Shown here: piece after piece, positions 19,142 to 21,046 of the stretch
Layout of the letters: each line of letters opens with the position of its first letter
Numbering within the stretch: the first letter of the stretch is position 1
Assembly (NCBI RefSeq): GCF_003790525.1
Contig: NZ_CP033635.1
DNA from: Escherichia coli
Lineage (GTDB): Bacteria > Pseudomonadota > Gammaproteobacteria > Enterobacterales > Enterobacteriaceae
Length of the DNA: 64,000 bases
Reading direction: 5' to 3' (one strand)
Program-made: the position numbers and the translations under genes
Notes under the pieces: generated by a model
Databases searched by the model: none
What the model saw: the letters and a program-made list of their open reading frames with translations, nothing else
What the model was told of the DNA's origin: nothing

Positions 19142-19164
19142 TCTCTACATGTGTTAAATATTGA

Positions 19165-19195
19165 AACGGGCGTATAACACGCCCGTTGTTTTATT
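19165..19195 (+). terminator. icd rho-independent terminator
   Basis: Hairpin AACGGGCGTATAACACGCCCGTT followed by a T-run. Confidence 0.75.
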
Positions 19196-19305
19196 TATGT
19201 GGATATTATTAATAGCATGTCGAGAATATTTATATGAAGCCCATTACTTGGGTGATGCTGCCAACTTACTGATTTAGTGTATGATGGTGTTTTTGAGGTG
19301 CTCCA

Positions 19306-19581
19306 GTGGCTTCTGTTTCTATCAGCTGTCCCTCCTGTTCAGCTACTGACGGGGTGGTGCGTAACGGCAAAAGCACCGCCGGACATCAGCGCTATCTCTG
19401 CTCTCACTGCCGTAAAACATGGCAACTGCAGTTCACTTACACCGCTTCTCAACCCGGTACGCACCAGAAAATCATTGATATGGCCATGAATGGCGTTGGA
19501 TGCCGGGCAACCGCCCGCATTATGGGCGTTGGCCTCAACACGATTTTCCGCCATTTAAAAAACTCAGGCCGCAGTCGGTAA
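19306..19581 (+). CDS. insA: IS1 InsA
   Basis: 91-aa zinc-finger/HTH protein typical of IS1. Confidence 0.9.
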
Positions 19582-20003
19582 CCTCGCGCATACAGCCGGG
19601 CAGTGACGTCATCGTCTGCGCGGAAATGGACGAACAGTGGGGATACGTCGGGGCTAAATCGCGCCAGCGCTGGCTGTTTTACGCGTATGACAGGCTCCGG
19701 AAGACGGTTGTTGCGCACGTATTCGGTGAACGCACTCTGGCCACACTGGAGCGTCTTCTAAGCCTGCTGTCGGCCTTTGAGGTCGTGGTATGGATGACGG
19801 ATGGCTGGCCGCTGTATGAATCCCGCCTGAAGGGAAAGCTGCACGTAATCAGCAAGCGTTACACTCAGCGAATTGAGCGGCATAACCTGAATCTGAGACA
19901 ACATCTGGCAAGGCTGGGACGGAAGTCACTGTCGTTCTCAAAATCGGTGGAGCTGCATGACAAGGTCATCGGGCATTATCTGAACATAAAACACTATCAG
20001 TAA
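19500..20003 (+). CDS. insB: IS1 InsB reading frame (expressed as the InsAB' frameshift fusion)
   Basis: 167-aa ORF overlapping insA in the -1 frame. Confidence 0.85.
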
Positions 20004-20020
20004 GTTGGAGTCATTACCCA

Positions 20021-20344
20021 TTACTTGAGTCCATATGGGCATATTTTTATAATGCAACTATTATGCAAACATTTATTTGTTATTTTGCTTTCTCCTGGAG
20101 GACACTCTTGACTGCTTTTGAGTAAACTCCATAAATCCTTGTTGAATGATGCGATGTTATAAATAGTAATAGGATATTCTTTATCCTTAAGGATAATACC
20201 AGACTTAACCGGTGTAAATATCCTGCCAGGAGGGAGAAATATAGTAGATTGATACCAGATGATCATTTTCATATCACCCCATATGGCTGAAAAAGATATG
20301 CCGCATGTAGGTTGAATTACCGTGTCAATTACTATCCACTTCAT
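20021..20344 (-). CDS. iraM: Anti-adaptor protein IraM
   Basis: 107 aa ([23 protein letters not shown]...); the IS1 target duplication overlaps its stop codon. Confidence 0.8.
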
Positions 20345-20808
20345 TTGTTATGTCTTATCCCACGGTGCTTAATATAGTTCATTTGGATGTTCATTTCTTG
20401 ATTTTGCATATGTGTATATTACTCCCAAAAAAATAAATTAATTAAAAATTAATGTCATTATCTATATAAAACAAAATTTAAAGCAAGGAATCTCAATAGA
20501 GATTAAACAAAATGAGATTTAGTGAAAACATTAAATTATTCACTTCGTTTTAGATTTGTTTAGCTAAAATGTTATACATTCAAATGACTGAATATTCTGT
20601 AATTAAAACATAGCCTTTATGCTACTTTGAGCCAATTTGCTAAACATTATGGTTGGCCTTTTAATATAACGATAATGATGAATATAAGCATGACATGAGA
20701 ATAATGTTTCAATTTTTTAGTTATATAGGAATGGTTTGACCCATTCCTGGCTAAAATACATATAACCGGATGATGACTAAACCAAAACACATGTGCGTTA
20801 AGTATTGA

Positions 20809-20831
20809 AACGGGCGTATGGCACGCCCGTT
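20809..20831 (+). terminator. Orphan terminator-like hairpin, paralog of the icd terminator
   Basis: AACGGGCGTATGGCACGCCCGTT plus flanks match 19155-19200 at about 85%. Confidence 0.5.
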
Positions 20832-21046
20832 GGTTTTATAAATATGTTAACCGTTATAAAATAACGTATAGAAAGTCAAGTGATCACATTTCAAATATCA
20901 AGTTGATAGTATTGATCTGGTGATTATTTATGGGTGGCAATAAAAAGATAGTATTACTCATCCATATGAATAGTCTCTGCACTTTTATTTCCATTATGCT
21001 AATGCCTTACTGAATTATGAAGCATTTTTTAAGCATCCAACTTTAG

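Follow-up and report, generated by a model that had tools for sequence, protein, structure and literature searches.

A displaced copy of the icd terminator module between iraM and ycgX of Escherichia coli, a probable attachment-site scar of an old integration

Introduction

The 64,000-nucleotide stretch of Escherichia coli DNA analysed here (contig NZ_CP033635.1 of assembly GCF_003790525.1, hereafter the window) carries two hairpin modules of the same type on its + strand, the first (copy 1) behind the icd gene and the second (copy 2) further downstream, between iraM and ycgX, and we propose that the latter is probably an attachment-site scar. The closest described system is the e14 prophage of E. 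coli K-12, for which attL and attR sites and an icdC pseudogene have reportedly been characterized (Brody & Hill 1988; Hill, Gray & Brody 1989; both as cited in PMC12803456). Integration of e14 gives icd a replacement 3' end with its terminator and displaces the resident one, the e14-borne and icdC-linked hairpins form direct repeats around the element in strain MG1655, and the displaced module abuts the next gene downstream, features that are all found in, or proposed for, the locus described here. Unlike e14, the element at this locus would have shrunk to 817 bp without integrase, with the displaced icd coding sequence essentially gone, and whereas e14 is strain-specific the present structure is established in about 71% of E. 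coli.

Lambdoid phages of the phage 21 type are also said to integrate at icd (Wang et al. 1997, J Bacteriol 179:5705, as cited in PMC12803456). Phages 4A7, D2, ev017 and 1H12 carry, like our locus, the icd 3' end with a hairpin identical to that of copy 1 and ending in ...GTTTTAT, and the sitABCD cargo of phages of this type adjoins the attachment site, a cargo feature in common with the islet that lies between the two copies. In contrast, the phage 21-type arm repeats (TTCCCCAAAAC) are missing beside copy 1 and copy 2, and none of these phages has the chromosomal-type iraM or its flanks. The accessory genes (morons) of lambdoid prophages that encode IraM/IraL and the DUF1398 proteins YcgX/YbcV/YdfO agree in relative order and strand with iraM and ycgX 3' of icd, the difference being that chromosomal iraM has no phage genes around it. 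Finally, islets at the 3' ends of tRNA and transfer-messenger RNA genes are bounded by direct repeats, tens of nucleotides long, that derive from their target's 3' end. Like the present locus, they combine target-derived repeats, foreign composition and empty-site alleles within a species, but the target here is the 3' end of a protein-coding gene with its terminator, and no integrase is left.

Results

The copy 1 module (19147-19194, + strand) is made of ACATGTG TTAAATATTGA (ACATGTG...TATTGA), a stem-loop (19165-19187) and GTTTTAT, and would be the working icd terminator. When it is aligned on the same strand with the copy 2 module (20789-20839, + strand, stem-loop 20809-20831), 45 of 51 positions are identical with gaps (88%), and an ungapped stretch of 43 nt is again 88% identical. 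The likeness reaches 18-20 nt 5' of the stem (ACATGTG..TTAA(A/G)TATTGA) and also covers the T-tract 3' of it, G(G)TTTTAT. A pattern of 28 specified bases matches these two sites alone in the 64 kb, with none expected from shuffled sequences, and a profile of the icd 3' end run with nhmmer detects copy 2 at E = 6.8e-8 and no third hairpin or further icd remnant in the window. No family came close to the threshold in an Rfam scan, and no account of these repeats was found in our literature searches. The duplicate is a real copy of the icd terminator module, and the earlier note on this DNA, which had placed a second same-strand hairpin of about 85% likeness between iraM and ycgX, is borne out.

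The two copies lie 1644 bp apart in the window, which agrees with the 1.6 kb announced in that note, but 777 bp of this distance is a strain-specific IS1 with its target duplication; in other iraM-carrying strains the usual spacing without IS1 is ~865 bp. Once IS1 is removed, the repeats enclose an islet of 817 bp with iraM and ymgK, the GC content of which is 29.9% against 50.4% for icd (local GC of iraM ~35%). Direct repeats in the same orientation around compositionally foreign DNA are what a scar of integration should leave. The left end of the islet (19195-19250) follows directly on ...GTTTTAT, in place of the phage arm DNA. Its cargo gene iraM (20021-20344, minus strand), coding for an RpoS anti-adaptor with 94-95% identity to annotated IraM, is preceded by an AT-rich upstream region (20345-20749, minus strand, 24-31% GC) delimited by composition, which contains the small gene ymgK (20603-20647, minus strand, placed from the K-12 annotation). 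Both iraM and ymgK being on the minus strand, no host gene lies on the + strand upstream of copy 2; the earlier note had seen no + strand gene there at all, which is corrected by the transposase genes of IS1, the only + strand genes in that place.

The boundary of the repeat was compared with that of phage modules. In 28 lambdoid phages the icd 3' homology covers the stop codon and the entire hairpin and ends at the equivalent of window position 19194. In phages 4A7 and D2 the module stops at ...GTTTTAT, arm repeats and the integrase gene come next, and the sitABCD cargo lies on the other side; these modules are identical to copy 1 (4A7) or nearly so. The islet-side flank of copy 1, the flank of copy 2, the flanks of empty-site alleles (see below) and the phage arms or lysogens all diverge at one same nucleotide. 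As expected of a scar, the repeat coincides with the segment that known icd-integrating phages have in their attachment region and ends where it does, and copy 2 keeps only the final ~50 nt of the ~210-235-nt phage-type module.

Population counts were made on 5426 complete E. coli genomes. The layout with iraM, copy 2 and ycgX is present in 3846 of them (about 71%), with or without e14. In another 1129 the site is empty: one hairpin is joined straight to the DNA found right of copy 2, and the icd 3' end before it belongs either to the full gene or to a displaced pseudogene. In the empty-site strains EcN, AVS0973, DCE7 and GPEC657 the right flank of the single hairpin is that of copy 2, the single hairpin sits at copy 2's position, and the empty-site allele aligns with iraM-carrying genomes from ACATGTG exactly onwards. 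Such an allele, with its one repeat and uninterrupted flanks, is a further property expected of a scar. The strains without iraM at this locus include Nissle 1917, UM146 and ATCC 25922, which belong to phylogroup B2. The earlier note had named a hairpin universal in E. coli, with likeness confined to the stem, as the observation that would speak against a relic; 1129 genomes have one copy only and the likeness exceeds the stem. The comparison with K-12 and e14-free strains that it proposed shows copies 1 and 2 to be identical between MC4100 (e14-free) and MG1655 (e14-carrying).

The number of places where the module occurs in a genome has a median of 2 and a maximum of 6 (5417 genomes), with 2 in the window, and every module copy whose location was examined is linked to icd. 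Since the places are so few, the module is not a dispersed intergenic repeat family of the REP/BIME/ERIC type; it is carried by icd and by the elements integrating there. The suggestion of a shared terminator family therefore stands only in this narrow sense. Plasmid records of complete E. coli assemblies account for thirteen matches to the iraM-ycgX segment. In strain LCP17S3_I1 (L004 6784-7704) an IS1 sits in the T-tract of copy 2, and ymgL, ycgX, bluR, bluF and part of ycgZ are deleted. A truncated match (H23) considered as an integration at copy 2 was rejected and is explained instead by an IS1-mediated deletion.

Serial copies of the module are found elsewhere. MG1655 has three hairpins in series, the order being the e14-borne hairpin (with a compensatory stem), e14, icdC with copy 1, iraM and copy 2, and Citrobacter genomes have two to three serial icd 3'-plus-hairpin modules around islands. 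Some IMG/VR prophage predictions terminate in the series icd fragment, copy 1, iraM, copy 2 and ycgX, and scans of IMG/VR with the junction sequences returned only icd-located prophages that include host flank. In Citrobacter sp. MGH106 (L025), three icd 3'-end-plus-hairpin modules (223-333, 5761-5898 and 8582-9829) follow one icd gene; two of them have e14-type arms and their stems show compensatory differences. In Citrobacter gillenii (L026 2104-9828), an icd-bracketed adhesin island with an AIDA-type autotransporter, a TibC-like glycosyltransferase, a PapB-like regulator and a ycgX homologue is closed by a displaced 3' fragment of icd that has a hairpin of its own.

IraM is a PhoP-controlled regulator of RpoS stability. 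Most of its relatives examined are accessory genes of lambdoid prophages, with 55-70% identity: of six divergent IraM lineages, five occupy the interval from the antiterminator gene Q to the lysis genes, antisense to late transcription, and the remaining one lies in an IS-rich island. DUF1398 genes, the family of ycgX, occur after the lysis cassette and before the terminase gene in lambdoid prophages, and the C. gillenii homologue of ycgX is inside the island between icd and the icd 3' remnant. The affiliation of the cargo with mobile elements is again what a scar predicts, and ycgX was probably carried in by an older element integrated here. A lambdoid prophage sitting at icd in the standard orientation would be collinear with the series icd(+), iraM(-), ycgX(-). 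Searches of phage genomes and IMG/VR yielded no donor element. It has been stated that iraM is on the e14 prophage (PMC4045071); this placement is incorrect because iraM is outside e14 and present in e14-free strains.

Several observations on iraM relatives were made beside these. In Stx2 phages (L006 6001-6321, L007 6001-6324) an IraM homologue with 64.5% identity lies directly after stx2B on the opposite strand, before nanS-p, and lacks annotation in most Stx2c phage records. On metagenome contig ERR5173188 (L109 1119-1944) a 74%-identical IraM homologue adjoins a YmgB/AriR-family gene, and the ariR cluster of E. coli is a few kb from iraM. A 28-nt match of 86% between icd (18079-18106) and iraM (20205-20232), on opposite strands and in different frames, falls in the conserved LPPG-IFTPV motif of the IraM family, where phage copies match more weakly, and was judged probably coincidental.

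On the right side of copy 2, 42 nt starting 13 nt from it resemble an e14-type arm with TTATCAAAA repeats. In the window, which is DNA of E. coli SMS-3-5 (20019-21060 is 100% identical to NC_010498.1), this stretch as given by local alignment is TAAC-GTTAT-AAAA...TATCAAAA...GT-ATCA (20845-20886, + strand). The right flank of the single hairpin in empty-site strains shows the same likeness. In shuffle tests the SMS-3-5 version reaches z = 3.6 and those of K-12 and EcN z ~6, and the latter two outscore all 594 AT-rich control windows. The arm-like stretch (also L017 18001-18043 and L001 2554-2596) overlaps the 3' end of ymgL. No similarity was found between the right flank of copy 1 and e14-type or phage-21-type arms, nor between the upstream region of iraM and the other (P) arms of e14, the EcN prophage and phage 4A7.

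To describe the state of the two hairpins, their predicted folds were compared. Copy 1 folds at -18.2 kcal/mol (z = -4.7) with an additional outer A/U helix and is terminator-like on the + strand. Its 23-nt stem-loop is the same in 8 of 10 iraM-carrying strains sampled (the K-12 derivatives MC4100 and MG1655 counted as two), the exceptions being elppa9, with an inversion of the central loop, and LCP30S3, with a flank difference only; the stem is fully paired and intact in every sampled strain (-15.3 kcal/mol or better). Copy 2 folds at -15.3 kcal/mol (z = -2.6), the outer A/U helix being gone; it is terminator-like on the + strand as well, with a T-tract interrupted in SMS-3-5, and its stem has mismatches in the K-12 lineage (-10.2 kcal/mol, z = -1.2) and in EH2252 (-9.9). 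Both copies fit the sequence criteria of intrinsic terminators on the + strand, and only copy 1 follows a host gene. The hairpin centre is flipped (GTGTTATAC vs GTATAACAC) in copy 1 of elppa9 (L101 424-446) and in phage D2 (L019 2706-2728), a loop-flip polymorphism of a near-palindrome seen in one E. coli strain and one phage.

Around the two copies, the window has the following layout. The icd gene (17891-19141, + strand) is full-length in the list of open reading frames, codes for 416 amino acids and has no prophage inserted; its stop codon is followed by the hairpin with a 9-bp stem and the T-tract. The e14 genes (intE...mcrA) are not found in the window between a split icd and icdC, icd being intact, nor between icd and iraM, an interval that holds IS1 alone, which confirms the full-length icd and the absence of e14 reported before. 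Icd of the window has 99.5-99.8% amino-acid identity with other Escherichia Icd proteins. The hairpin behind icd had been called its native terminator; it does follow the icd stop codon, but "native" is ambiguous since strains differ in a mosaic fashion over the final ~245 nt of icd (9-34 differences per 245 nt).

The IS1 copy (19251-20018, + strand, 768 bp) has all the characters of the family: its length, Pfam matches for InsA and the IS1 transposase (InsA/InsB), terminal inverted repeats and a 9-bp target duplication, CATTACTTG, at 19242-19250 and 20019-20027, which overlaps the iraM stop codon. It is missing from all nine other iraM-carrying strains examined. It lies 2 nt beyond the iraM stop codon and splits iraM from copy 1, its usual downstream hairpin, so that iraM transcripts of the window strain may now read through into IS1. 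To the right of copy 2, the small gene ymgL (20884-20994, minus strand, K-12 annotation) is an intact 36-codon open reading frame whose stop lies ~53 nt from copy 2, and it is followed by ycgX (21047-21451, minus strand), which matches Pfam DUF1398.

Discussion

Taking the repeat, the empty-site alleles, the boundary in common with phage modules, the serial copies, the prophage homes of relatives of IraM and YcgX and copy 2's decay as observations, we infer the donor, the order of events and the present-day function as follows, and consider it probable that an old integration at the icd hotspot left copy 2 as its attachment-site scar. Phages and related elements integrating at icd bring the last ~165-210 nt of icd and the terminator hairpin with them, so that the incoming module completes icd while the resident one, hairpin included, is moved to the far end of the element. 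An iraM-carrying element would have integrated in this way and then lost its integrase and nearly everything else, the residue being the AT-rich islet with iraM and ymgK between the new copy 1 and the older, displaced copy 2, of which the coding portion would have eroded. Copy 2 itself would come from a still earlier lambdoid element that left ymgL and ycgX; such an element probably brought it, because the right flank of copy 2 resembles an e14-type arm and leads into ymgL-ycgX. The result would be a stack of hairpins with the youngest nearest icd, to which MG1655 adds e14 as a third layer and SMS-3-5 adds IS1 only. A donor element would be recognized by an icd-type attachment region followed by TTATGTGGATATTATTAATAGC, or by a chromosomal-type iraM with its AT-rich upstream region.

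Several results weigh against this scenario. The islet has no integrase, excisionase or other recombination gene and contains only iraM, ymgK and the strain-specific IS1; as such a lack is expected of a decayed relic, we class the structure as a scar and not as an element. When the islet flanks are compared with phage genomes, the iraM coding sequence alone can be aligned (72% nucleotide identity). A candidate for the eroded final ~38 nt of the icd coding part, left of copy 2 (20750-20788, + strand), has 20/38 matches with ACATGTG aligned at the icd stop region, a marginal result (p ~0.017 by shuffling); nhmmer did not extend into it and the +1/-1 extension score is not significant. An icdC-like displaced icd coding end is present in MG1655, EcN and the Citrobacter analogues, and the past element may have had an attachment core of only the ~50-nt hairpin module. 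In an unbiased nhmmer scan with e14-type arms the copy 2 flank of SMS-3-5 is not significant, so that the arm likeness rests on tests made at that location. In an outgroup comparison at the RluE locus, a prophage lies at icd in all four representatives (E. albertii, E. whittamii, Escherichia sp. E1V33 and GTDB E. coli), the state downstream of the prophage lying past the 10-kb flank; a search with YcgX homologues for outgroup polarity yielded prophage or unrelated paralogues only. Finally, the empty-site flanks form at least two lineages, GPEC657 on one side and EcN, AVS0973 and DCE7 on the other, so that in some strains without iraM the islet may once have been present and then been deleted through recombination between the repeats.

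The last point leads to a possible, although in our view doubtful, alternative in which the iraM islet is the ancestral state and every single-hairpin allele arose later by deletion, through a crossover between copies 1 and 2, copy 2 remaining a duplicate. Besides the existence of more than one flank lineage, the EcN hairpin equals copy 1 on its left and has the copy 2 flank on its right, like a crossover product. However, the crossover would be confined to ~17 nt between loop and flank, the main empty-site group is a coherent lineage, and the same pattern is expected with a conserved working terminator and a drifting displaced copy.

A second alternative keeps the same origin and gives copy 2 a present-day role, as a minus-strand terminator or insulator that would shield the PhoP-regulated iraM promoter region from ymgL-ycgX read-through. 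Of the 9 strains sampled, 6 keep an intact copy 2 stem, retention of the module predates the diversification of E. coli, the fold of the reverse strand is equal (-15.3 kcal/mol, z = -3.4), and a bidirectional role is plausible because the single hairpin of empty sites lies between the convergent icd and ymgL-ycgX. On the other hand, the stem is followed on the minus strand by UUUCAAUACUU, a poor U-tract, and the terminator scan calls no minus-strand terminator; moreover two lineages have stem-weakening changes and the K-12 fold is no better than that of shuffled sequences. To judge from the sequence, such a role appears unlikely, and copy 2 may at most be a weak minus-strand stop for ycgX-ymgL transcripts ahead of the iraM promoter region. 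We read copy 2 rather as a decaying scar under relaxed constraint, with no + strand gene to terminate.

That the two hairpins are convergent, or independent members of a general terminator or dispersed (REP-like) family, is very improbable. Both are intrinsic-terminator-like on the + strand, but their identity continues upstream of the stem and through the T-tract, the module occupies few places per genome, icd-linked in every located copy, and the empty-site alleles carry one copy instead of two. The idea that copy 2 was left by a recent integration and excision of e14 or another prophage in this strain is hardly credible. In its favour, icd is a known hotspot and the window is without e14, but copy 2 has the same five diagnostic differences in MG1655, MC4100 and seven other strains, is shared by the 3846 genomes counted above, lies beyond iraM and not at the e14 junction, and would not survive a site-specific excision, which regenerates a single site.

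The proposal of the earlier note that copy 2 is a relic of the duplicated icd 3' end left by integration and excision is consequently retained in part. A past integration at the hotspot agrees with the empty sites, the phage boundaries, the serial hairpins and the prophage relatives of IraM. Clean excision leaves no duplicate whereas a decayed element does, so that copy 2 is not an excision relic of this strain, and it is unconnected with e14 because the same two copies are present in MG1655 and MC4100.

Conclusion

The attachment-site scar proposed here involves a textbook mechanism, and the advance is local, the scar at this spot being previously undescribed. It would account for the origin of iraM, a well-studied regulator of RpoS turnover, and for the absence of iraM at the locus in about one fifth of E. 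coli genomes. For annotators it is a caution, as a convincing terminator without an upstream gene can be a displaced attachment-site module. In Escherichia and Citrobacter, the icd hotspot logs successive integrations as a series of terminators, which could serve to order old integrations. We also lean, with less assurance than for the scar itself, towards the wider view that the whole interval from icd to ycgX is a relic stack of at least two successive lambdoid prophages, each marked by its own hairpin, in which iraM and ycgX were domesticated in place. If this is true, the hairpins would be datable layer markers, a core stress-response regulator would have a concrete origin, and the placement of iraM on e14 would be corrected.

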